Shown: positions 40,006 to 50,716, counted from the stretch's first letter. The stretch: 64,000 bases of DNA from Escherichia coli (GCF_009931435.1 NZ_CP043414.1); one strand, 5' to 3'. The notes: generated by a model not told the origin, from the letters alone. Program-made: numbers and translations.

Positions 40006-41199
40006 TCAAATCTGTCGTAACTGCGCCTCAACATACAAATAGCCAATCCCCAGCACCTGCTGTGCGCGGCTTAATTGCCCAAAGCCAATTTGCGTCGCTT
40101 TCACGCTCGGTCCTTCGTCACGGTCGAACGGGTTAAATCCTGTCTGGCGAATAATGGAATTAAGCCAGTTCTCACCAAAGGCGCAGCTGCGACCATACAG
40201 CCAAATCTGATTAATATTGAGGATATTGAGGAAGTTATACAGACTCAAACCAATGGCGTTGGCACTGCGGTCAACCCAGCTGGTGATCCACGGTTCTCCA
40301 CTCTGCCAGGCAGCGATTAACTGCGCGGTAGTCAGTTTTTCAGGATCAAGCTGAGTATTAACCGGTTGTGATTTTAGCCATACCCGCGCCTGTTTTTTTA
40401 ATGCGCTTAACGAGGCGACGGTTTCCAGGCAGCCATAACGTCCACAGTCGCAGGCGACGCCATCCGGATTAACGATGGTGTGACCAATCTGTCCGCTACC
40501 ATACAAACTGCCGCGATAAATTTGCTCGTTAATCACGAACGACGAGCCAATACCGTAATCAACGTTGATCACGCAGAAATCCCGTCCTTGCGAATTATTT
40601 TGCCATTTCTCCGCCAGCGCCAGCATCACGCAGTCATTATCGACCATCACCCGAATGCCCAGCTTCTCTTCCAGCAGATACTTCACCTCAACCGGTGTTG
40701 TCCACGGCGCTTGCGGCATGGTTTGCGACACGCCAGTCACTGGATCAACCTGACCGTGGATAGCCAGCGCCAGGTTGATGGTACGGTCTGACCACAGTTT
40801 ACGATGGCGATGCCAGCATTTTTCGATTTCGGACAACAGAGCCTGCGGTGTCGGTGCATCAATCTGAAAATACTCAAATTCGCCTTTCGGACTTAAACAG
40901 GCATTAGCGACCTGACACTCAATGCTGGTGGGCGTTACGTTCAGGCACAGCGTCCAGTCACCTTCCGGCGCGATCAGCCATGTACCGCTACTGTGCCCGC
41001 GCGTCTGGCTTTCATCGTCGATATTCACCACCCGCTTTTCGCTTTCCAGTTCCTGCAAAATATTACTGACTGCCGGAATTGAAATTTGCGCCAGCCGGGC
41101 CAGCGTTGATTTATTGGCGCGCTTTTGCCGGTACAGCAGTTCCAGAATCACGCATTTGTTATGGTGGCGGATCTGTTGATTGTTAATGCAGGCTCTCAT
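40006..41199 (-). CDS. yphH: ROK-family (NagC/Mlc-like) transcriptional regulator
   Basis: 397 aa from ATG at 41199 (MRACINNQQIRHHNKCVILELL); ORF track starts two codons upstream (41205); N-terminal wHTH, ROK sugar-kinase-like fold with CxCGxxGC zinc motif (CDCGRYGC). Confidence 0.8.
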   Translation of the reverse strand: MRACINNQQIRHHNKCVILELLYRQKRANKSTLARLAQISIPAVSNILQELESEKRVVNIDDESQTRGHSSGTWLIAPEGDWTLCLNVTPTSIECQVANACLSPKGEFEYFQIDAPTPQALLSEIEKCWHRHRKLWSDRTINLALAIHGQVDPVTGVSQTMPQAPWTTPVEVKYLLEEKLGIRVMVDNDCVMLALAEKWQNNSQGRDFCVINVDYGIGSSFVINEQIYRGSLYGSGQIGHTIVNPDGVACDCGRYGCLETVASLSALKKQARVWLKSQPVNTQLDPEKLTTAQLIAAWQSGEPWITSWVDRSANAIGLSLYNFLNILNINQIWLYGRSCAFGENWLNSIIRQTGFNPFDRDEGPSVKATQIGFGQLSRAQQVLGIGYLYVEAQLRQI

Positions 41200-41316
41200 A
41201 TTCACTAAACCTTGTTTAGTTAATTGCGTGATTATTCCGCGAAAACATTGCCAGATTGTTCAATACACTGCCACAAATCTTTTAATTCAGTATGTCTTGT
41301 TAATATTGAGGGCACC

Positions 41317-44300
41317 ATGACTCCAGTAAAAGTGTGGCAAGAGCGCGTTGAGATCCCGACTTATGAAACAGGTCCGCAGGATATACACCCTATGTTCCTG
41401 GAAAATCGCGTTTATCAGGGATCGTCCGGTGCGGTTTATCCCTACGGCGTGACCGATACGCTGAGCGAGCAGAAAGTCCTGAAATCCTGGCAAGCGGTGT
41501 GGCTGGCAAACGACTATATCAAAGTGATGATCCTGCCGGAGTTGGGCGGTCGGGTGCATCGCGCTTGGGATAAAGTGAAACAGCGCGATTTTGTCTATCA
41601 CAATGAGGTGATTAAACCGGCGCTGGTAGGGCTATTGGGGCCGTGGATTTCGGGCGGGATTGAGTTTAACTGGCCACAACACCATCGCCCGACTACCTTT
41701 ATGCCCGTTGATTTCACCATCGAAGCCCATGAAGACGGCGCACAAACTGTGTGGGTTGGCGAAACGGAGCCGATGCACGGTTTACAGGTGATGACCGGTT
41801 TCACACTACGCCCTGACCGGGCGGCGCTGGAGATTGCCAGCCGCGTCTATAACGGCAATGCCACGCCGCGTCATTTCTTGTGGTGGGCCAACCCGGCAGT
41901 GAAAGGTGGCGAAGGGCATCAGAGCGTTTTCCCGCCGGATGTAACGGCGGTGTTTGATCACGGCAAACGGGCTGTTTCAGCTTTCCCTATCGCTACCGGC
42001 ACTTACTACAAAGTGGACTACTCCGCCGGAGTGGATATTTCTCGCTATAAAAATGTGCCAGTGCCGACTTCGTATATGGCCGAAAAATCGCAGTACGATT
42101 TTGTTGGCGCATGGTGTCACGATGAAGATGGCGGTTTGCTACACGTTGCCAACCACCACATCGCGCCAGGTAAAAAACAGTGGAGCTGGGGACACAGTGA
42201 ATTCGGCCAGGCGTGGGATAAGAGCCTGACCGACAATAACGGCCCGTATATCGAACTGATGACGGGTATTTTTGCCGATAACCAGCCCGATTTTACCTGG
42301 CTTGATGCTTACGAAGAGAAGCGTTTCGAGCAGTATTTCCTGCCTTATCATTCTCTGGGCATGGTGCAAAACGCCTCCCGCGATGCGGTGATTAAACTCC
42401 AGCGTAGTGAGCGGGGGATTGAGTGGGGGCTGTATGCCATCTCCCCGTTGAACGGATACCGGCTGGCGATCCGCGAAATCGGCAGATGCAACGCGTTACT
42501 CGACGATGCCGTGGCTCTGACACCAGCGAACGCCATTCAGGGCGTGTTGCATGGTATCAATCCTGACAGACTAACCATTGAACTCTCCGATACTGACGGC
42601 AATATCGTACTGAGTTATCAGGAACATCAGCCACAAGAGTTGCCGTTGCCGGACGTCGCCAAAGCGCCACTGGCAGCACAAGACATTACTAGTACAGATG
42701 AAGCCTGGTTTATCGGTCAGCATCTGGAGCAATATCATCATGCCAGCCGTTCACCGTTCGATTACTACCTGCGCGGTGTGGCGCTGGATCAGCTGGATTA
42801 TCGCTGTAACCTGGCGTTGGCAATGCTGGAATATAACCGCGCCGATTACCCACAAGCGGTGTCGTATGCCACTCAGGCGCTGAAACGCGCACATGTGCTG
42901 AACAAAAACCCGCAGTGCGGACAGGCGAGTTTGATTCGCGCCAGTGCTTACGAACGTCAGGGGCAATATCAACAAGCCGAAGAGGATTTCTGGCGTGCGG
43001 TCTGGAGCGGAAACAGTAAAGCCGGTGGCTATTATGGTCTGGCACGGCTGGCGGCGCGTAATGGTCACTTCGACGCGGGTCTGGATTTTTGCCAACAAAG
43101 TCTTCGCGCCTGCCCAACCAATCAGGAAGTGCTTTGCCTGCATAACCTGCTGCTGGTGTTAAGTGGTCGTCAGGACAACGCGCGTTTACAGCGAGAGAAG
43201 TTGCTGCGCGATTATCCGCTGAACGCCACCTTTTGGTGGCTGAACTGGTTCGATGGTTGTAGCGAATCTGCCCTCGTACAGTGGCGAGGTCTGTGTCAGG
43301 GACGCGACGTTAACGCCCTGATGACCGCCGGGCAACTGATTAACTGGGGCATGCCCGCTCTGGCGGCAGAGATGCTGAACGCACTGGACTGTCAGCGCAC
43401 GCTACCGCTTTACCTGCAAGCCAGTTTGCTGCCAAAAGCTGAACGCGGAGAACTGGTCGCAAAAGCTATTGATGTCTTCCCGCAGTTTGTCCGTTTCCCT
43501 AATACGCTGGAAGAAGTGGCGGCGCTGGAGAGTATCGAAGAGTGCTGGTTTGCCCGGCATTTACTGGCCTGTTTCTACTACAACAAGCGCAGCTACGGCA
43601 AAGCAATTGCCTTATGGCAACGTTGCGTTGAGATGTCGCCGGAGTTTGCCGACGGCTGGCGTGGGCTGGCAATCCATGCATGGAATAAGCAGCATGATTA
43701 TGAACTGGCCGCGCGTTATCTTGATAGTGCTTATCAGCTTGCGCCGCAGGATGCTCGTCTGCTTTTTGAACGGGATTTGCTGGATAAGCTAACCGGAGCC
43801 GCACCGGAGAAACGACTGGCTCGTCTGGAAAATAATCTGGAAATTGCTCTGAAACGCGACGACATGACCGCAGAACTGCTCAATTTGTGGCATCTCACTG
43901 GTCAGGCAGACAAAGCGGCGGACATTCTCGCCAAGCGCAAATTCCACCCGTGGGAAGGTGGGGAAGGGAAGGTCACCAGCCAGTTTATCCTCAACCAGTT
44001 ATTACGCGCCTGGCAGCATCTTGATGCCAGAGAGCCGCAGCAGGCCAGCGAACTGCTTCATGCCGCGTTGCATTATCCGGAGAATTTAAGCGAAGGCCGT
44101 TTACCGGGGCAAACTGACAACGACATCTGGTTCTGGCAGGCGATATGCGCCAAGGCGCAGGGCGATGAAACTGAAGCGACGCGTTGTTTACGTCTGGCGG
44201 CGACCGGCGATCGCACCATTAACATCCACAGTTATTACAACGATCAGCCGGTTGATTATCTCTTCTGGCAAGGGATGGCGCTGCGATTACTGGGCGAACA

Positions 44301-44598
44301 ACAAACCGCACAGCAACTGTTTAGTGAAATGAAACAGTGGGCACAAGAGATGGCAAAAACCAGTATCGAAGCGGATTTCTTTGCCGTCTCGCAACCTGAC
44401 TTGTTATCGCTGTATGGCGATTTACAACAGCAACATAAAGAAAAATGTCTGATGGTGGCGATGCTGGCGGCTGCGGGATTAGGCGAGATTGCGCAATACG
44501 AATCTGCTCGCGCTGAATTGACGGCGATTAATCCAGCCTGGCCGAAAGCGGCATTATTCACCACCGTGATGCCTTTTATTTTTAGCTACGTTCACTAA
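41317..44598 (+). CDS. yphG: Large uncharacterised protein: N-terminal domain of unknown function plus C-terminal TPR-like repeat array
   Basis: ORF track 1124 aa; start at ATG 41317 (MTPVKVWQERVEIPTYETGPQ, 1093 aa); C-terminal half rich in A/L/W/Y helical repeats typical of TPR. Confidence 0.8.
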   Translation: MTPVKVWQERVEIPTYETGPQDIHPMFLENRVYQGSSGAVYPYGVTDTLSEQKVLKSWQAVWLANDYIKVMILPELGGRVHRAWDKVKQRDFVYHNEVIKPALVGLLGPWISGGIEFNWPQHHRPTTFMPVDFTIEAHEDGAQTVWVGETEPMHGLQVMTGFTLRPDRAALEIASRVYNGNATPRHFLWWANPAVKGGEGHQSVFPPDVTAVFDHGKRAVSAFPIATGTYYKVDYSAGVDISRYKNVPVPTSYMAEKSQYDFVGAWCHDEDGGLLHVANHHIAPGKKQWSWGHSEFGQAWDKSLTDNNGPYIELMTGIFADNQPDFTWLDAYEEKRFEQYFLPYHSLGMVQNASRDAVIKLQRSERGIEWGLYAISPLNGYRLAIREIGRCNALLDDAVALTPANAIQGVLHGINPDRLTIELSDTDGNIVLSYQEHQPQELPLPDVAKAPLAAQDITSTDEAWFIGQHLEQYHHASRSPFDYYLRGVALDQLDYRCNLALAMLEYNRADYPQAVSYATQALKRAHVLNKNPQCGQASLIRASAYERQGQYQQAEEDFWRAVWSGNSKAGGYYGLARLAARNGHFDAGLDFCQQSLRACPTNQEVLCLHNLLLVLSGRQDNARLQREKLLRDYPLNATFWWLNWFDGCSESALVQWRGLCQGRDVNALMTAGQLINWGMPALAAEMLNALDCQRTLPLYLQASLLPKAERGELVAKAIDVFPQFVRFPNTLEEVAALESIEECWFARHLLACFYYNKRSYGKAIALWQRCVEMSPEFADGWRGLAIHAWNKQHDYELAARYLDSAYQLAPQDARLLFERDLLDKLTGAAPEKRLARLENNLEIALKRDDMTAELLNLWHLTGQADKAADILAKRKFHPWEGGEGKVTSQFILNQLLRAWQHLDAREPQQASELLHAALHYPENLSEGRLPGQTDNDIWFWQAICAKAQGDETEATRCLRLAATGDRTINIHSYYNDQPVDYLFWQGMALRLLGEQQTAQQLFSEMKQWAQEMAKTSIEADFFAVSQPDLLSLYGDLQQQHKEKCLMVAMLAAAGLGEIAQYESARAELTAINPAWPKAALFTTVMPFIFSYVH

Positions 44599-44694
44599 AC
44601 ACTATTAACTGTAATATTTGAGCGGCACGCGCTGCCGCTCACGCTCAAATAATTAAAATAAGCCGTTGTAAATAAAAACCCTACAGGAGGCACT

Positions 44695-45678
44695 ATGCCT
44701 AAAAAAATGAGAACAACCCGTAATCTATTATTAATGGCTACGCTATTAGGTAGCACACTATTTGCCAACGCTGCGGAAAAAGAAATGACCATTGGTGCAA
44801 TATACCTTGATACCCAGGGATATTACGCCGGAGTGCGCCAGGGCGTTCAGGATGCGGCAAAAGATTCTTCAGTACAGGTACAGTTAATTGAAACTAACGC
44901 CCAGGGCGATATTTCGAAAGAAAGTACCTTTGTTGATACCCTCGTGGCGCGTAATGTCGATGCCATTATTTTGTCGGCAGTGTCCGAAAATGGCAGTAGC
45001 CGCACCGTTCGCCGCGCCAGTGAGGCGGGTATTCCGGTGATTTGCTACAACACCTGTATTAATCAAAAGGGTGTCGATAAATATGTCTCGGCATATCTGG
45101 TTGGCGATCCGCTGGAATTTGGTAAAAAACTGGGTAACGCTGCCGCAGATTATTTTATTGCCAACAAAATTGACCAGCCGAAAATTGCTGTCATCAATTG
45201 CGAAGCCTTTGAAGTTTGTGTGCAACGACGTAAAGGGTTTGAAGAAGTATTAAAAGCCCGCGTTCCCGGCGCGAAAATTGTCGCTAATCAGGAAGGGACT
45301 GTTTTAGATAAAGCGATTTCTGTTGGTGAAAAACTGATTATCTCCACGCCAGATCTCAACGCCATTATGGGGGAATCGGGTGGAGCGACACTCGGCGCGG
45401 TAAAAGCGGTACGTAATCAAAATCAGGCTGGAAAAATTGCCGTTTTCGGTTCAGATATGACCACTGAAATTGCTCAGGAACTGGAAAATAACCAGGTGCT
45501 GAAAGCGGTAGTGGATATTTCCGGTAAGAAAATGGGCAATGCTGTTTTCGCGCAAACATTGAAGGTTATCAATAAACAAGCCGACGGTGAAAAAGTGATT
45601 CAGGTACCAATCGATCTCTATACCAAAACGGAAGACGGTAAACAGTGGCTGGCAACGCACGTTGATGGTCTGCCCTAA
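44695..45678 (+). CDS. yphF: ABC transporter periplasmic sugar-binding protein (LacI/RbsB-type fold)
   Basis: 327 aa; signal peptide MPKKMRTTRNLLLMATLLGSTLFANA; periplasmic binding protein type I. Confidence 0.85.
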   Translation: MPKKMRTTRNLLLMATLLGSTLFANAAEKEMTIGAIYLDTQGYYAGVRQGVQDAAKDSSVQVQLIETNAQGDISKESTFVDTLVARNVDAIILSAVSENGSSRTVRRASEAGIPVICYNTCINQKGVDKYVSAYLVGDPLEFGKKLGNAAADYFIANKIDQPKIAVINCEAFEVCVQRRKGFEEVLKARVPGAKIVANQEGTVLDKAISVGEKLIISTPDLNAIMGESGGATLGAVKAVRNQNQAGKIAVFGSDMTTEIAQELENNQVLKAVVDISGKKMGNAVFAQTLKVINKQADGEKVIQVPIDLYTKTEDGKQWLATHVDGLP

Positions 45679-45700
45679 TCGCTGATTCGCAGAGGTCCCT

Positions 45701-47212
45701 ATGTTCACGGCAACAGAGGCAGTTCCGGTAGCAAAAGTGGTGGCAGGAAATAAGCGTTACCCCGGCGTCGTTGCGCTGGATAACGTTAACTTTACGCTCA
45801 ATAAAGGCGAAGTTCGCGCGCTGTTAGGCAAAAACGGTGCGGGAAAATCGACCCTCATTCGAATGCTTACCGGTAGCGAACGTCCGGATAGCGGTGATAT
45901 CTGGATTGGCGAGACGCGACTGGAAGGCGACGAAGCTACGCTGACTCGCCGTGCCGCTGAACTGGGGGTACGCGCGGTTTATCAGGAATTAAGTCTGGTG
46001 GAGGGGCTGACGGTGGCGGAAAATCTCTGCCTCGGTCAGTGGCCCCGCCGCAACGGCATGATTGATTACCTGCAAATGGCGCAGGATGCCCAACGTTGCT
46101 TACAGGCGCTGGGCGTCGATGTTAGCCCTGAACAACTTGTTTCGACACTAAGCCCGGCGCAAAAGCAACTGGTGGAAATTGCGCGGGTGATGAAAGGCGA
46201 GCCGCGCGTGGTCATTCTTGATGAACCTACCAGTTCGCTTGCCAGTACGGAAGTTGAACTGGTGATCAGCGCCGTGAAAAAGATGTCGGCACTGGGCGTG
46301 GCGGTGATTTATGTCAGCCACCGAATGGAAGAAATCCGCCGCATTGCCTCCTGTGCCACCGTCATGCGCGATGGTCAGGTGGCGGGCGATGTGATGCTCG
46401 AAAACACCTCAACCCGTCATATTGTGTCGCTGATGCTCGGGCGCGATCACGTTGATCTTGCACCGGTTGTAGCTCAGGAGATTGCGGACCAGACCGTACT
46501 GGAAGTTCGCGCGTTACGCCACAGACCAAAACTTACGGAGATCAGTTTTTCCCTGCGTCGTGGCGAAGTGCTCGGCATTGCTGGCCTGCTGGGGGCAGGG
46601 CGCAGTGAATTGCTGAAGGCGATTGTTGGACTGGAGACGTATGAACAGGGCGAAATTGTTATCAACGGCGAGAAAATCACGCGCCCCGATTACGGCGACA
46701 TGCTGAAACGCGGCATTGGCTATACGCCAGAAAACCGCAAAGAAGCGGGGATCATTCCCTGGCTGGGCGTTGACGAAAATACGGTACTGACCAATCGGCA
46801 AAAAATCAGCGCCAACGGTGTGCTGCAATGGTCCACCATCCGCCGCCTGACCGAAGAGGTGATGCAGCGGATGACGGTCAAGGCCGCCAGTAGCGAAACG
46901 CCCATCGGCACGCTTTCTGGCGGCAATCAGCAAAAAGTGGTGATCGGTCGTTGGGTCTATGCCGCCAGCCAGATTTTATTGCTCGACGAGCCAACGCGCG
47001 GCGTCGATATCGAAGCCAAACAGCAGATTTACCGTATTGTCCGCGAGCTGGCTGCCGAAGGGAAAAGCGTGGTGTTTATCTCCAGTGAAGTGGAGGAGTT
47101 GCCGCTGGTGTGCGACCGCATCCTGTTATTACAGCACGGTACGTTCTCGCAGGAGTTTCACTCGCCGGTCAATGTGGATGAGCTGATGTCCGCCATTCTG
47201 TCTGTGCACTGA
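45701..47212 (+). CDS. yphE: ABC transporter ATP-binding protein, tandem-duplicated ATPase (sugar importer type)
   Basis: 503 aa; two Walker A (GKNGAGKST; second degenerate), two LSGG signature regions. Confidence 0.9.
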   Translation: MFTATEAVPVAKVVAGNKRYPGVVALDNVNFTLNKGEVRALLGKNGAGKSTLIRMLTGSERPDSGDIWIGETRLEGDEATLTRRAAELGVRAVYQELSLVEGLTVAENLCLGQWPRRNGMIDYLQMAQDAQRCLQALGVDVSPEQLVSTLSPAQKQLVEIARVMKGEPRVVILDEPTSSLASTEVELVISAVKKMSALGVAVIYVSHRMEEIRRIASCATVMRDGQVAGDVMLENTSTRHIVSLMLGRDHVDLAPVVAQEIADQTVLEVRALRHRPKLTEISFSLRRGEVLGIAGLLGAGRSELLKAIVGLETYEQGEIVINGEKITRPDYGDMLKRGIGYTPENRKEAGIIPWLGVDENTVLTNRQKISANGVLQWSTIRRLTEEVMQRMTVKAASSETPIGTLSGGNQQKVVIGRWVYAASQILLLDEPTRGVDIEAKQQIYRIVRELAAEGKSVVFISSEVEELPLVCDRILLLQHGTFSQEFHSPVNVDELMSAILSVH

Positions 47213-47236
47213 TGAATTTTACCGAGGAACCTGAAG

Positions 47237-48235
47237 ATGTCTGCTTCGTCATTACCATTGCCGCAGGGCAAGAGCGTCTCGCTCAAACAATTTGTCAGTC
47301 GCCATATTAATGAGATCGGTTTGCTGGTGGTAATCGCCATTCTTTATCTGGTCTTCTCCCTGAATGCGCCTGGCTTTATCTCATTGAATAACCAAATGAA
47401 CGTGCTGCGCGATGCTGCCACCATCGGGATCGCCGCCTGGGCGATGACGCTGATTATTATCTCCGGTGAAATTGATGTCAGCGTTGGACCGATGGTGGCT
47501 TTTGTCTCGGTGTGCCTGGCATTTTTGCTGCAATTTGACGTTCCGCTGGCGATTGCTTGTCTGCTGGTGTTGCTGTTAGGCGCGCTGATGGGGACGCTGG
47601 CCGGCGTGCTGCGCGGCGTGTTTAACGTGCCCAGTTTCGTTGCCACGCTGGGGCTGTGGAGCGCCCTGCGCGGAATGGGGCTGTTTATGACTAACGCCCT
47701 GCCAGTGCCGATTGACGAAAACGAGGTACTGGACTGGCTGGGGGGACAATTTCTCGGTGTGCCAGTATCCGCGCTGATCATGATGGTGTTGTTTGCGCTG
47801 TTTGTGTTCATCAGCCGCAAAACCGCCTTCGGGCGCTCGGTTTTTGCTGTTGGCGGTAATGCGACGGCAGCGCAGTTGTGCGGTATCAACGTTCGTCGGG
47901 TGCGCATTCTTATTTTTACCCTTTCGGGATTATTAGCGGCGGTGACCGGCATTTTGCTGGCAGCTCGCCTCGGTTCTGGTAACGCAGGTGCGGCAAACGG
48001 TCTGGAGTTTGACGTCATCGCTGCGGTCGTGGTCGGCGGTACGGCACTTTCCGGCGGTCGCGGTTCCTTGTTCGGTACGTTGCTTGGTGTGCTGGTGATT
48101 ACGCTAATCGGTAACGGTCTGGTGTTGCTCGGGATTAACTCTTTTTTCCAGCAGGTGGTGCGCGGCGTCATCATCGTGGTGGCGGTTCTGGCGAATATCT
48201 TGCTGACCCAGCGAAGCAGTAAAGCGAAACGCTAA
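47237..48235 (+). CDS. yphD: ABC transporter permease (RbsC/AraH-like)
   Basis: 332 aa polytopic membrane protein. Confidence 0.9.
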   Translation: MSASSLPLPQGKSVSLKQFVSRHINEIGLLVVIAILYLVFSLNAPGFISLNNQMNVLRDAATIGIAAWAMTLIIISGEIDVSVGPMVAFVSVCLAFLLQFDVPLAIACLLVLLLGALMGTLAGVLRGVFNVPSFVATLGLWSALRGMGLFMTNALPVPIDENEVLDWLGGQFLGVPVSALIMMVLFALFVFISRKTAFGRSVFAVGGNATAAQLCGINVRRVRILIFTLSGLLAAVTGILLAARLGSGNAGAANGLEFDVIAAVVVGGTALSGGRGSLFGTLLGVLVITLIGNGLVLLGINSFFQQVVRGVIIVVAVLANILLTQRSSKAKR

Positions 48236-48300
48236 ACCTTAACGCCCCTGGCGCGGGTGCGGCAGGGATGAAAATTAATCGTATTGTTAATGAGGGAATT

Positions 48301-49362
48301 ATGAAAACGATGCTGGCAGCTTATTTACCAGGAAATTCGACCGTCGATCTGCGGGAAGTTGCGGTGCCGACACCGGGGATTAACCAGGTACTGATTAAAA
48401 TGAAATCCTCCGGGATTTGCGGAAGCGATGTCCACTATATCTATCATCAACACCGCGCCACAGCGGCGGCTCCCGATAAACCGTTATACCAGGGATTTAT
48501 CAACGGTCATGAACCGTGCGGGCAAATTGTGGCGATGGGGCAAGGTTGTCGCCATTTTAAAGAGGGCGACCGCGTGCTGGTGTATCACATTTCTGGCTGT
48601 GGTTTTTGCCCGAACTGCCGTCGCGGTTTTCCTATCTCTTGTACTGGCGAAGGAAAAGCTGCTTACGGCTGGCAGCGTGACGGCGGTCATGCTGAATATC
48701 TGCTGGCGGAAGAAAAAGATCTGATCCTCCTGCCGGATGCGTTGAGCTACGAAGATGGTGCGTTTATCAGTTGTGGCGTTGGCACAGCGTATGAAGGGAT
48801 TTTGCGTGGCGAAGTTTCCGGCAGTGATAACGTGCTGGTGGTCGGTCTGGGGCCGGTCGGCATGATGGCGATGATGCTGGCGAAAGGTCGCGGTGCAAAA
48901 AGGATCATCGGCGTTGATATGCTGCCGGAACGTCTGGCGATGGCGAAACAGTTAGGGGTGATGGATCATGGTTATTTAGCAACCACTGAAGGTCTGCCGC
49001 AGATTATCGCCGAACTTACCCACGGCGGCGCGGATGTTGCGCTCGATTGTTCCGGTAATGCCGCAGGTCGCTTACTGGCTTTGCAATCCACCGCTGACTG
49101 GGGACGCGTGGTTTACATCGGAGAAACCGGAAAAGTCGAGTTCGAGGTTAGCGCCGACCTGATGCACCATCAACGGCGGATTATTGGCTCCTGGGTGACC
49201 AGTTTGTTCCATATGGAAAAATGTGCCCATGATTTGACTGACTGGAAACTGTGGCCGCGTAACGCCATTACCCACCGCTTCACGCTGGAACAGGCAGGTG
49301 ATGCCTATGCGCTGATGGCGAGCGGCAAATGCGGGAAAGTTGTGATTAACTTCCCGGATTAA
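48301..49362 (+). CDS. yphC: Zinc-dependent medium-chain alcohol/polyol dehydrogenase
   Basis: Start at ATG 48301 (MKTMLAAYLPGNSTVDL, 353 aa); GICGSDVH and GHEPCG zinc ligand motifs, Rossmann GLGPVG. Confidence 0.85.
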   Translation: MKTMLAAYLPGNSTVDLREVAVPTPGINQVLIKMKSSGICGSDVHYIYHQHRATAAAPDKPLYQGFINGHEPCGQIVAMGQGCRHFKEGDRVLVYHISGCGFCPNCRRGFPISCTGEGKAAYGWQRDGGHAEYLLAEEKDLILLPDALSYEDGAFISCGVGTAYEGILRGEVSGSDNVLVVGLGPVGMMAMMLAKGRGAKRIIGVDMLPERLAMAKQLGVMDHGYLATTEGLPQIIAELTHGGADVALDCSGNAAGRLLALQSTADWGRVVYIGETGKVEFEVSADLMHHQRRIIGSWVTSLFHMEKCAHDLTDWKLWPRNAITHRFTLEQAGDAYALMASGKCGKVVINFPD

Positions 49363-49373
49363 GGAGTCAGCGG

Positions 49374-50246
49374 ATGACCATCTATACCTTATCTCACGGG
49401 CCGCTAAAGCTGGACGTTTCTGACCGGGGCGGCGTCATCGAAGGCTTCTGGCGTGACGTGACGCCGCTCTTACGTCTCGGTAAAAAAAGCGGTGTGGCAA
49501 CCGATGCCTCTTGTTTTCCGCTGGTGCCGTTTGCAAACCGGGTGAGCGGCAACCATTTTGTCTGGCAGGGGCGTGAGTATCAACTGCAACCGAATATTGA
49601 ATGGGATGCGCACTATCTGCACGGCGACGGCTGGCTGGGCGAGTGGCAATGTGTCTCGCGCAGCGATGATAGCTTGTGTCTGGTGTATGAACATCGCAGC
49701 GGTGTTTATCACTATCGGGTAAGTCAGGCGTTTCATTTAACGGCAGATACGCTGACGGTGACGCTCTCTGTCACCAACCAAGGGACAGAGACGCTGCCAT
49801 TTGGTACCGGCTGGCATCCTTATTTTCCGTTGTCACCACAAACGCGGATTCAGGCGCAGGCGAGCGGTTACTGGCTGGAGCGGGAGCAGTGGCTGGCGGG
49901 GGAGTTTTGCAAGCAGCTACCGCAGCAGCTGGATTTCAACCAGCTCGCGCCGTTGCCGCGCCAGTGGGTAAACAATGGCTTTGCCGGATGGAATGGTCAG
50001 GCCCGCATCGAGCAGCCGCAGGAGGGTTATGCCATCATCATGGAAACGACGCCGCCGGCACCGTGTTATTTCATCTTTGTTTCCGATCCGGCGTTTGATA
50101 AAGGATATGCGTTTGATTTCTTCTGTCTGGAACCGATGAGTCATGCGCCGGATGACCATCATCGCCCGGAAGGAGGTGACCTCATTGCGCTTGCGCCGGG
50201 GGAATCAACAACGTCAGAGATGTCGTTGCGGGTTGCGTTACTGTAA
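49374..50246 (+). CDS. yphB: Aldose 1-epimerase (mutarotase) family protein
   Basis: 290 aa; galactose mutarotase-like fold inferred from length and synteny. Confidence 0.8.
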   Translation: MTIYTLSHGPLKLDVSDRGGVIEGFWRDVTPLLRLGKKSGVATDASCFPLVPFANRVSGNHFVWQGREYQLQPNIEWDAHYLHGDGWLGEWQCVSRSDDSLCLVYEHRSGVYHYRVSQAFHLTADTLTVTLSVTNQGTETLPFGTGWHPYFPLSPQTRIQAQASGYWLEREQWLAGEFCKQLPQQLDFNQLAPLPRQWVNNGFAGWNGQARIEQPQEGYAIIMETTPPAPCYFIFVSDPAFDKGYAFDFFCLEPMSHAPDDHHRPEGGDLIALAPGESTTSEMSLRVALL

Positions 50247-50256
50247 TTTATAAAAT

Positions 50257-50286
50257 GCCGGATAAGGCGTTCACGCCGCATCCGGC
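50257..50286. repeat. Single REP element between convergent yphB and yphA
   Basis: GCCGGATAAGGCGTTCACGCCGCATCCGGC. Confidence 0.7.
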
Positions 50287-50293
50287 ATCTTTC

Positions 50294-50716
50294 CTAACGC
50301 CGATCGAGAGAAATTGCCCCCGGCCCGGTAATTGCCAACAGCAGGAATGCGCCAGCGATACTGACATTCTTCCAGAAATTAATCATATTTGGCCCAACCG
50401 CATCGCCGGTCATATCCCAGTAATGGTGACCAATCACCGCCGTACCCAGCGTGTAGAAAATAAACAGCACCGCCAGCGGACGGGTGAAAAAGCCAAGCAC
50501 GATTAAAATCGCGGCGGGCACTTCCATAACTACCGCAATAATCGCTGCCAGCATCGGCATTGGCGCGCCCAGCGAGGCCATATATTGGACCGTACCGTCA
50601 AAGCCCATCATTTTGGGAAAACCAAAAATAATGAAAATTAAGACCACGGCGATACGGGCAATTAATAACAAAACGGGGCGTGCAACACCAAAATCAAAAT
50701 AACGTAGTGAGTTCAT
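50294..50716 (-). CDS. yphA: DoxX-family inner membrane protein
   Basis: Start at ATG 50716 ([18 protein letters not shown], 140 aa); four predicted TM helices. Confidence 0.8.

Follow-up and report, generated by a model that had tools for sequence, protein, structure and literature searches.

The yph locus of Escherichia coli is a real sugar-uptake operon; its substrate is a known unknown, for which testable leads are now available. Five of its genes, yphFEDCB, were newly recognized here as a conserved cassette that recurs in other bacteria, in two of which it adjoins a gene for a galactonate dehydratase-type enzyme. It is tentatively proposed, as a reading that could well prove wrong, that the locus is a repressor-controlled catabolic operon through which a galacto-configured reducing sugar would be imported and oxidized at C1 toward galactonate. 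The substrate would be a neutral reducing monosaccharide, most likely a galacto-configured one such as D-galactose or a close relative.

Organization and control of the yph locus

The eight genes of the yphH / yphGFEDCB / yphA block occupy positions 40006-50716 of the window (the whole stretch of 64,000 nucleotides that was analyzed), on which the ORF list and the RefSeq annotation of the closest genome agree; the locus is flanked by glyA and hcaD (Table 1). The gene-level assignments of the preliminary description, which included a complete sugar-type ABC importer, a divergent ROK-family regulator, an aldose-1-epimerase-like YphB, a convergent DoxX protein and a YphG of uncharacterized function, were all reproduced by profile, structure or annotation searches, and none of the eight proteins reaches an NCBIfam equivalog. 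No experimentally assigned substrate or pathway was found in the full-text literature searched (mostly outside subscription journals), and the earlier view of the block as a known-unknown rather than a new system is a reasonable one.

Table 1. Features of the yph locus, in coordinates of the window
Feature	Position	Strand	Description
yphH	40006..41199	-	ROK-family (NagC/Mlc-like) transcription regulator; divergent from yphG
yphH-yphG control region	41200..41316	.	Candidate; inverted repeat and alignment of intergenic regions
yphG	41317..44598	+	1093 aa; DUF5107 and TPR repeats
Hairpin GAGCGGCA-CGCGC-TGCCGCTC	44620..44640	+	yphG-yphF gap; T-run absent
yphF	44695..45678	+	Periplasmic sugar-binding protein of CUT2 ABC importer; Sec signal peptide
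yphE	45701..47212	+	Tandem-domain ABC ATPase, 503 aa
yphD	47237..48235	+	ABC permease
yphC	48268..49362	+	Zn-dependent medium-chain dehydrogenase; likely true start ATG 48301
yphB	49374..50246	+	Small aldose-1-epimerase; begins 11 bp past yphC
REP-like palindrome GCCGGATAAGGCGTTCACGCCGCATCCGGC	50257..50287	.	Between convergent yphB and yphA
yphA	50294..50716	-	Putative DoxX-family inner-membrane protein, convergent with yphB

The plus-strand genes from yphG to yphB are separated by 96, 22, 24, 32 and 11 bp, in that order, a spacing that fits a single operon with predicted co-transcription. The hairpin in the first of these gaps (-24.1 kcal/mol, z -2.4 in RNA folding) may be an element for transcript stabilization or processing. 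A weak terminator-like hairpin was also seen within the 3′ end of yphG, at 44550-44583. For two genes, homologs favor the more downstream of two starts: in yphG, ATG 41317 over the TTG at 41224, which would give a longer ORF, and in yphC, ATG 48301, which yields a protein of 353 aa, over position 48268.

The importer is of the CUT2 monosaccharide type (ribose/arabinose/galactose class). YphF has a signal peptide visible at its N-terminus, which reads MPKKMRTTRNLLLMATLLGSTLFANA, and weak matches, all far under cut-off, to the NCBIfam models AlsB, MglB, RbsB, LsrB and YtfQ, its best PDB match being 5hsg (2e-24). YphE scores 413-450 bits against AraG, XylG, AlsA and MglA, and YphD 221-226 bits against RbsC and AraH, in each case under the equivalog cut-offs. 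The domains encoded in orthologous loci are Peripla_BP_4, two copies of ABC_tran, and BPD_transp_2. RbsABC, AraFGH, MglBAC, AlsBAC, YtfQRT-YjfF and YphFED are all built from three parts, with a single permease and an ATPase in which two ABC domains are fused; although the family matches are strong, YphFED misses every equivalog cut-off of those importers widely.

YphH matches the NCBIfam models for NagC (112 bits, cut-off 650), Mlc (109 bits, cut-off 530) and ROK glucokinase over residues 10-350, with the Mlc match beginning at residue 10 and the N-terminal region present, and carries the ROK zinc motif CDCGRYGC (type CxCGxxGC) at residue 250. It resembles the NagC/Mlc repressors in its N-terminal region, a putative winged-helix DNA-binding domain, in its ROK domain with CxCGxxGC and in a gene divergent from the presumed target operon, but its scores lie far under both equivalog cut-offs, and its linker motif is unlike the GR motif found in most ROK clusters (PMC4288165). 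The same paper refers to YphH as the "third uncharacterized ROK repressor" in E. coli. A ROK gene is likewise divergent from the yphG homolog in loci of Enterobacterales and Aeromonas. Between yphH and yphG lie an imperfect palindrome, ATTCACTAAAC / GTTTAGTTAAT, at 41200-41224, an invariant ATTGCGTGA at 41223-41231 and, closer to yphG, the boxes ACTGCC and TTCAGT; when 13 such intergenic regions from Enterobacterales and Aeromonas are aligned, 26 columns are invariant, most densely in the palindrome block. The region is a candidate YphH operator and promoter, and YphH would repress the operon at the conserved palindrome block.

The yphFEDCB cassette and a possible route to galactonate

A five-gene block syntenic with yphFEDCB of E. 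coli occurs at 41-68% identity in Vibrio nigripulchritudo and Acidisoma cellulosilytica (YphF 52-54%, YphE 53%, YphD 65-68%, YphC 61-66% and YphB 41-42%), in loci that carry neither yphG nor yphH. In both species the cassette adjoins genes for a GntR/FCD regulator and for a dehydratase of the enolase superfamily (MR_MLE). Against the NCBIfam equivalog "galactonate dehydratase", the two dehydratases score 577 and 339 bits (cut-off 311, which the Acidisoma enzyme barely exceeds), and the nucleotide sequence of the Vibrio gene matches dgoD of E. coli. The Acidisoma dehydratase also scores 255 bits against the model for a bifunctional gluconate/galactonate dehydratase, and its locus contains an SDR gene typical of deoxy-sugar routes.

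YphC has the features of a zinc-dependent medium-chain dehydrogenase: catalytic zinc ligands, four structural-zinc cysteines and a GxGxxG fold. In the ortholog alignment, the catalytic ligands H66 and E67 and the structural-zinc residue C96 do not vary, nor do G41 and the glycines G178, G180 and G183 of the dinucleotide fold; the catalytic ligand C40 and the structural-zinc cysteines C99, C102 and C110 are retained in at least 90% of the sequences. Its Pfam domains are ADH_N, ADH_zinc_N and Glu_dehyd_C (1.8e-10), the last overlapping the generic ADH_zinc_N domain. The mutarotase gene abuts or overlaps yphC in Acidisoma and Vibrio and lies 11 bp downstream of it in E. coli, and an Aldose_epim gene also follows the yphC ortholog in the high-GC locus L094. 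YphB itself matches PDB 3nre (E. coli b2544; 5e-200, identical in family), and its orthologs carry Pfam Aldose_epim, in keeping with membership of the mutarotase family; in the literature it was found solely as a structural template (PMC5902678). A mutarotase gene in this position makes sense only if the dehydrogenase takes one anomer of a cyclic reducing sugar, and together with the galactonate dehydratase neighbor in two lineages it points to such a sugar rather than a polyol, which suggests that YphC may be an aldose 1-dehydrogenase. The earlier designation of YphC as a polyol/alcohol dehydrogenase agrees with its sequence neighborhood but not, as regards a polyol substrate, with this genomic context.

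In the proposed route, the sugar would be imported at high affinity by YphF, YphE and YphD, its anomers would be interconverted by YphB and probably also by the mutarotase-fold domain of YphG, and the cyclic sugar would be oxidized at C1 by YphC to the aldonolactone. The lactone would then open to D-galactonate, which would be converted to pyruvate and glyceraldehyde-3-phosphate via the separately encoded dgoD, dgoK and dgoA. At least 5021 of the 5426 genomes of E. coli contain matches annotated as dgoD and dgoA, and dgoK is presumably present as well, given established knowledge of the dgo operon. YphG could alternatively perform ring-form interconversion or another cofactor-free conversion at the anomeric carbon.

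Overall, this would be a De Ley-Doudoroff-type route, with the order sugar, lactone, galactonate and 2-keto-3-deoxygalactonate. The likeness includes the dgoD-type dehydratase and DgoR-like GntR/FCD regulator beside the Vibrio and Acidisoma cassettes, as compared with dgoRKADT of E. coli. The galactose 1-dehydrogenases known from bacteria are of the SDR or Gfo/Idh/MocA type, unlike YphC, a zinc-dependent medium-chain dehydrogenase; moreover, in E. coli the upper (yph) and lower (dgo) parts are unlinked and under different regulators. The promiscuous Entner-Doudoroff pathway of archaea (Sulfolobus) shares with the cassette the pairing of a zinc-dependent medium-chain dehydrogenase with an enolase-superfamily aldonate dehydratase (in Sulfolobus, a Zn-MDR glucose/galactose dehydrogenase and a gluconate/galactonate dehydratase), a likeness extended by the Glu_dehyd_C match of YphC and the gluconate/galactonate match of the Acidisoma dehydratase. 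The 60 listed PDB matches to the profile of YphC, however, include no archaeal MDR glucose/galactose dehydrogenase.

Several observations count against the galactonate route. The dehydratase neighbor occurs in two independent lineages only, one of them Acidisoma with its low score and additional SDR gene, and NCBIfam provides no equivalog for any of the eight proteins. The cassettes of the E. coli, Vibrio and Acidisoma loci and of L094 showed no domain of a lactonase type (SMP30, amidohydrolase_2), so that the lactone would have to hydrolyze spontaneously or through an enzyme encoded elsewhere. Mutants of E. coli K-12 lacking galK are not known to grow on galactose, which would mean either that galactose does not induce the operon or that the physiological substrate is not D-galactose. 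In Vibrio and Acidisoma the cassette manages without YphG, and a plain mutarotase role for this protein seems redundant, as its operons already encode another mutarotase (YphB or GalM).

In Serratia, the operon reads either yphG-MFS-yphB or yphG-MFS-yphFEDC-yphB, the FEDC genes being present or absent between the MFS gene and yphB. YphC and YphG are also paired in an organism of 63.5% GC, where the order yphG-FEDCB is accompanied by an AraC regulator and YphG is 36% identical. Both patterns support the proposed route. The E. coli operon looks like a composite: an older core of yphH, yphG, a transporter gene and yphB, found elsewhere with an MFS sugar porter, would have received the yphFEDC import-oxidation cassette and then lost the MFS gene.

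YphG and competing interpretations of the locus

YphG is a member of a very large family with a mutarotase-like fold whose function is uncharacterized. It consists of an aldose-1-epimerase-fold DUF5107 domain (approximately residues 5-345; Pfam PF17128, 2.3e-54 over residues 39-324), a small beta domain (357-435) and a TPR superhelix (460-1093), and has no signal peptide. The N-terminal domain shows the mutarotase beta-sandwich fold; compared with the GalM/aldose-1-epimerase family (PF01263), to which it has no match in a Pfam search, YphG is three times longer and has an extra beta domain and the TPR superhelix. Invariant or nearly invariant residues include H122, H123, R124, H215 and E313, candidate equivalents of the GalM catalytic residues (two His and Glu, plus Asp and Arg). 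E313 is followed by NQPD, which in our reading resembles the GalM motif E-T-Q-x-x-P-D; profile comparisons with GalM and YphB gave no significant similarity (hhalign). PDB 5cd6 (BDI_1685 of Parabacteroides distasonis), a structural genomics entry of 580 aa for which no publication was found, has a TPR part roughly half as long as that of YphG and no function on record.

The neighborhoods of YphG have a galactose theme, in line with the proposed galacto-configured substrate. Among 85 YphG loci, a sugar-porter MFS gene and an AraC-type regulator were each present in 47, a BT4151-like GH2 exo-beta-1,4-galactosidase in 29 and GalM in nine; GH97-like alpha-galactosidases occur too. In Bacteroidota the GH2 proteins bear signal or lipoprotein peptides, which their Firmicutes counterparts lack; in either phylum the freed monosaccharide would meet a cytoplasmic YphG.

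In a possible, if somewhat unlikely, alternative, YphG would be the key catabolic enzyme, with a novel cofactor-free activity at or near the anomeric carbon that converts an unusual imported sugar to ordinary galactose. Ring-form conversion, aldose-ketose isomerization, anhydro-sugar opening or hydrolysis of very small galactosides would be candidate reactions; YphB would anomerize the product, to be consumed by the Leloir pathway in most species or by YphC in E. coli. The minimal conserved module is consistent with such a role, comprising a regulator, YphG, a monosaccharide transporter and a mutarotase with no other enzyme, and about 60 YphG residues that are invariant or nearly so down to 27% identity, including R782, F876, E880 and G881 in the TPR part, suggest an enzyme over a scaffold. 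More distant members of the family are equipped with signal or lipoprotein peptides, and their genes lie beside sulfatases or in polysaccharide utilization loci with SusC/SusD, GH16 and GH42-like genes, where only cofactor-free chemistry would be possible. The Gal-negative phenotype of galK mutants would also be explained, as galactose would not be the inducer. Against this, the top structural matches of YphG are, by a wide margin, true mutarotases, no similarity to catalytic domains of known CAZy families (glycoside hydrolases, polysaccharide lyases) was found, and we know of no glycoside hydrolase family that uses a mutarotase-like fold as its catalytic domain. Furthermore, the cassette occurs without YphG in Vibrio and Acidisoma, with a binding protein still 52-59% identical, and the present data point to no candidate substrate.

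A polyol or rare-sugar route is unlikely, although it draws on the relatives of YphC, which count against C1 oxidation: here YphC would act as a sorbitol/xylitol-dehydrogenase-type enzyme and oxidize a secondary alcohol of an imported sugar alcohol or rare sugar to a ketose, with kinases encoded elsewhere acting next. Among solved structures, YphC comes closest to threonine, xylitol and sorbitol dehydrogenases and to a ketose reductase. In NCBIfam it is matched best by Tdh and the scyllo-inosose 3-dehydrogenase IolM, and CUT2-class importers transport polyols and inositols as well as sugars. However, polyols have no anomers, yet a mutarotase gene lies against yphC in all versions of the cassette. 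In addition, no linked kinase, isomerase or aldolase was seen in any examined locus, and the downstream enzyme linked in two lineages is an aldonate dehydratase.

It is doubtful that YphG serves as a non-enzymatic scaffold or sensor, its mutarotase-like domain sensing the sugar and its 630-aa TPR superhelix docking a transporter, regulator or enzymes. Its partner regulators (ROK, AraC, LacI) and transporters (MFS or ABC) vary such that no fixed partner is apparent, secreted family members exist, and the polar and aromatic residues of the sugar-fold domain are highly conserved. Whole-protein geometry is also retained in an 18%-identical homolog (TM 0.79 over 1053 columns), suggesting a rigid single unit.

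Of 5426 complete E. coli genomes searched by Megablast, 5425 contain the yph block, 5370 of them with at least 80% coverage, and all of its ORFs are intact in the window. YphF protein has been detected in E. coli and was 3- to 4.6-fold more abundant with levoglucosan than with fructose, together with other binding proteins for scavenging, which indicates that the system is expressed (PMC8753852); no other mention of YphF was found in the literature searched. Given this conservation, the regulated YphF and a control region conserved across genera, it is very improbable that in E. coli the locus is a mostly silent relic of evolution that no longer serves the physiology of the cell, despite the lack of a phenotype or substrate in the searched literature and the split or truncated yphG and yphC of some E. 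coli assemblies and metagenome contigs.

At the distal end of the locus, the palindrome downstream of yphB is probably a REP element, given its likeness to the REP sequences of E. coli. YphA is annotated as a DoxX family protein in RefSeq, with a weak NCBIfam match of the HvfX/DoxX type (41 bits, cut-off 80). In RIT691, Cedecea and Enterobacter Ag1, the gene for its homolog is the next one downstream of yphH, indicating that linkage to the locus is kept in a different arrangement.

Gene content and family assignments of the yph locus

All eight genes placed at 40006-50716 by the preliminary description were recovered as ORFs at their listed positions, in agreement with the RefSeq annotation of E. 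coli 2020CK-00188, the closest complete genome to this 10.7-kb block (99.1% identity). The block, flanked by glyA on one side and by hca genes on the other, is present in 5425 of 5426 complete E. coli genomes and is chromosomal in every case. Against nearly every complete E. coli genome the block shows 95-99% identity, rising to 99.1% with a single strain (2020CK-00188), which suggests that the window belongs to an uncommon lineage of E. coli. Homolog alignments favored ATG start codons at 41317 for yphG and at 48301 for yphC (353 aa); the longer forms, namely a TTG-initiated yphG ORF of 1124 aa (extra part 41224-41316) and a 364-aa form of yphC (extra part 48268-48300), overrun the points where the orthologs start. 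Split or truncated yphG genes (e.g., 841+244 aa or 753+360 aa; loci L007 and L173, proteins P0002, P0030, and P0042), as well as one split yphC, occur in some E. coli assemblies and metagenome contigs, suggesting occasional pseudogenization or sequencing errors. In RIT691, Cedecea, and Enterobacter Ag1 (loci L010, L015, and L019), the yphA (DoxX) homolog directly follows yphH and shares its strand; in E. coli yphA is found at the opposite end of the operon from yphH, its linkage to the locus retained and its position altered.

The intergenic gaps among the plus-strand genes from yphG to yphB are 96, 22, 24, 32, and 11 bp, and this spacing, together with the site scan, predicts that these genes are likely cotranscribed. 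The promoter and terminator scan of the locus returned sites no more numerous than expected by chance, and flagged a weak hairpin with a T-run within the final 50 nt of yphG. Two hairpins, one on either side of the yphG stop codon (44550-44640), may adjust how strongly yphF is expressed relative to yphG. One conserved block of the yphH-yphG intergenic region (41200-41316), shared by 13 loci of Enterobacterales and Aeromonas, may serve as operator and promoter. A CRP site in this region was rejected by eye, as no acceptable second half-site accompanies the conserved TGCGTGA.

Features of the yph locus and of YphG (genes from the ORF list and the RefSeq annotation of the closest complete genome; conserved residues from a 75-sequence alignment; domains from the AlphaFold2 model)
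Feature	Position	Strand	Context
yphH	40006-41199	-	
yphG	41317-44598	+	
yphF	44695-45678	+	
yphE	45701-47212	+	
yphD	47237-48235	+	
yphC	48268-49362	+	
yphB	49374-50246	+	
yphA	50294-50716	-	
Imperfect palindrome ATTCACTAAAC/GTTTAGTTAAT	41200-41224		abuts yphH start codon
Invariant ATTGCGTGA	41223-41231		yphH-yphG intergenic region
ACTGCC and TTCAGT/TTCACT boxes	within 41200-41316		near yphG ribosome-binding site
Weak terminator-like stem with TTTTATTTTT	44550-44583		inside yphG coding end
GC-rich stem without T-run	44620-44640		yphG-yphF gap
REP-type palindrome (GCCGGATAAGGCGTTCACGCCGCATCCGGC)	50257-50287		between convergent yphB and yphA
YphG beta domain	residues 5-345		
YphG small beta domain	residues 357-435		
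YphG helical repeat superhelix	residues 460-1093		
YphG conserved motif GPWISGGIEFNWPQHHRP			N-terminal part
YphG conserved H215	residue 215		N-terminal part
YphG conserved GKK	residues 285-287		N-terminal part
YphG conserved D306	residue 306		N-terminal part
YphG conserved Y311 and E313	residues 311, 313		N-terminal part
YphG conserved NQPD	residues 322-325		N-terminal part
YphG second conserved patch	R782, F876, E880, G881		TPR part

Profile, structure, and annotation searches agreed with the gene-level family assignments made previously, and none of the eight proteins reached an NCBIfam equivalog cut-off. YphH carries the zinc motif CDCGRYGC and belongs to the ROK regulators, with NagC and Mlc as relatives; it has been listed as the third, uncharacterized ROK repressor of E. 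coli (PMC4288165; see also PMC9308461). A CUT2 monosaccharide-type ABC importer is made up of YphF (which carries a signal peptide), YphE, and YphD. In YphC, a Zn-dependent medium-chain dehydrogenase, the catalytic and structural zinc ligands are conserved; its closest solved structures are threonine, xylitol, and sorbitol dehydrogenases. YphB is the mutarotase of structural-genomics entry 3nre, used in the literature searched solely as a structural template (PMC5902678). In YphG, Pfam DUF5107 covers residues 39-324 and is followed by TPR repeats.

Few multigene sugar loci of E. coli still lack a substrate, and the yph genes form one of these. The searchable full-text literature (queried with the gene names, DUF5107, 5CD6/BDI_1685, and Bacteroides fitness) contained no functional or substrate assignment for the yph genes, in line with the earlier statement that the role of the locus is not established; most matches were off-target (B. 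subtilis YphC, a GTPase; the H. pylori MLST gene yphC; unrelated abbreviations). With the genes as described and no new kind of system found, the label of a known unknown rather than a new system stands. YphF protein was increased 3 to 4.6-fold on levoglucosan versus fructose, along with MalE, XylF, YtfQ, UgpB, and MglA (PMC8753852), indicating that the yph system is expressed; we read this rise as relief of catabolite repression. Levoglucosan itself was rejected as the substrate: the comparator was fructose, several unrelated scavenging binding proteins went up together, and the strain required a foreign kinase for levoglucosan use (PMC8753852).

A probable composite operon and a predicted route to galactonate

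Orthologs of YphC with 61-66% identity were found in Acidisoma cellulosilytica and Vibrio nigripulchritudo within the same five-gene block (binding protein, ATPase, permease, YphC, and Aldose_epim), without yphG or yphH. Each block is neighbored by a GntR/FCD regulator and an enolase-superfamily dehydratase, and these dehydratases pass the NCBIfam equivalog for galactonate dehydratase with 577 and 339 bits (cut-off, 311 bits). The Vibrio dehydratase gene matches E. coli dgoD by DNA similarity, with dgoD and dgoA annotated under such matches in at least 5021 E. coli genomes. The cassette argument is limited to close YphC orthologs, since a 58%-identical relative occurs with a TRAP transporter instead of the ABC block and a Bacteroidales relative is an isolated gene. 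A metagenome scan for further YphC contexts yielded few new ones, 69 of the 80 loci listed being E. coli-like.

In Aeromonas, Serratia, Citrobacter, Cedecea, Hafnia, and Budvicia aquatica, the operon order is a divergent ROK gene, yphG, an MFS sugar porter, and a yphB-type mutarotase, without ABC genes or yphC. Serratia contigs carry two forms, yphG-MFS-yphB and yphG-MFS-yphFEDC-yphB, with 98% identical MFS genes, suggesting that FEDC acts as an insertable cassette; the E. coli operon looks like a form that lost the MFS gene. Serratia locus L004 differs from loci L100 and L101 in the presence or absence of yphFEDC between the MFS gene and yphB, the operons being otherwise nearly identical. An organism with 63.5% GC has an AraC gene, yphG (36% identical), and then yphFEDCB (53-68% identical), suggesting that YphG and the cassette have become associated on independent occasions.

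As the most economical reading, a reducing galacto-configured monosaccharide would be imported, its anomer or ring form would be set by YphB and the mutarotase-fold domain of YphG, and C1 would be oxidized by YphC; the lactone would then open and the product enter the dgo pathway of galactonate catabolism, with YphH acting as a putative repressor from the conserved yphH-yphG block. Two indirect arguments favor C1 oxidation by YphC: a mutarotase gene beside a dehydrogenase gene would be pointless for a polyol, and the sole linked downstream enzyme is an aldonate dehydratase. Arguing the other way, the sequence neighbors of YphC are polyol and threonine dehydrogenases, the cassette genes include no lactonase, and the dehydratase link is supported by only two lineages. 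Moreover, galactose does not support growth of galK mutants of E. coli K-12, which means that either induction would require another signal or the true substrate would be a relative of galactose. If the cassette oxidizes a galactose-type sugar to galactonate, it would provide an unrecognized non-Leloir entry into the dgo pathway in E. coli, with a bearing on gut carbon scavenging and metabolic models. Besides this galactonate-directed hypothesis, the present analysis adds a composite history for the operon and describes the structure and the ecological settings of the DUF5107-TPR family. The interest of the locus is moderate and due mainly to YphG, its more interesting part, which is embedded in galactan-type utilization loci; E. 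coli offers a tractable host for assigning its function, and the neighborhood data narrow the candidate sugars.

YphG and the DUF5107-TPR family

The YphG family comprises 1121 representative clusters at 50% identity (E <= 1e-30), and the full ~1100-aa architecture is retained at identities as low as about 30%, in enterobacteria, Bacteroidota, Firmicutes, and bifidobacteria alike. Conservation is dense in the N-terminal part. The AlphaFold2 model is confident (pLDDT 95.2, pTM 0.93), and an 18%-identical AlphaFold DB homolog superposes on it with a TM of 0.79 over 1053 columns, suggesting a rigid and conserved domain arrangement. The AlphaFold DB search with YphG returned no characterized relative, and profile-profile alignment of the N-domain with GalM and YphB was not significant, indicating kinship at the fold level only. 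Some distant members bear signal or lipoprotein peptides and are located in polysaccharide utilization loci with SusC/SusD, GH16, and GH42-like genes, with sulfatases, or with a set of Aldose_epim, enolase-superfamily, and aldehyde dehydrogenase genes, which points to cofactor-free carbohydrate chemistry.

Among 85 yphG loci, 47 contain a single sugar-porter MFS family (XylE-like, over the TIGR00879 subfamily cut-off), 47 an AraC-type regulator, 29 GH2 enzymes nearest the Bacteroides exo-beta-1,4-galactosidase BT4151, and nine GalM; a GH97-type alpha-galactosidase and a beta-L-arabinopyranosidase-like protein are further members, as are sulfatases and an SGNH esterase in marine Flavobacteriia. 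Outside enterobacteria, the recurrent order is AraC (divergent), MFS, yphG, and GH2. In Bacteroidota the GH2 proteins are equipped with export signals, which their Firmicutes and Bifidobacterium counterparts lack; either way, the released monosaccharide would reach a cytoplasmic YphG. The common theme of these neighborhoods is galactose-type sugars.

Conservation and the secreted members argue that YphG is probably an enzyme. It is possible, albeit rather unlikely as a whole, that the DUF5107-TPR family is an undescribed class of cofactor-free carbohydrate-converting enzymes, in which a mutarotase-like site buttressed by a rigid TPR superhelix acts, in a reaction beyond simple anomerization, on a monosaccharide freed by BT4151-like GH2 galactosidases and imported by sugar porters in gut and marine polysaccharide degraders and enterobacteria, and that in E. 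coli YphG feeds a latent oxidative galactose-type route (YphC to dgo) around the Leloir pathway. A plain mutarotase role looks redundant with YphB or GalM. Action as a glycosidase on imported galactosides is unlikely, as the partner transporters belong to monosaccharide classes and the YphG fold matches non-catalytic domains of glycoside hydrolases. The possibility that YphG is the missing lactonase was set aside, as most yphG loci carry a transporter and a mutarotase and no dehydrogenase.

In Aeromonas (locus L002, 15676-23279), the yphG-MFS-yphB module directly adjoins a GalNAc/galactosamine (aga-type) cluster with GatZ/KbaZ, SIS, a PTS-Man family system, and tagatose-bisphosphate aldolase, which may be a coincidence or another galactose-family link. 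Seven marine Flavobacteriia loci (L021, L036, L038, L040, L061, L068, and L069) share a fixed string of sulfatase(s), MFS, SGNH/GDSL esterase, GH2, and the yphG homolog, often with more sulfatases and a second GH2, which suggests that their target is a sulfated, possibly acetylated, galactan.
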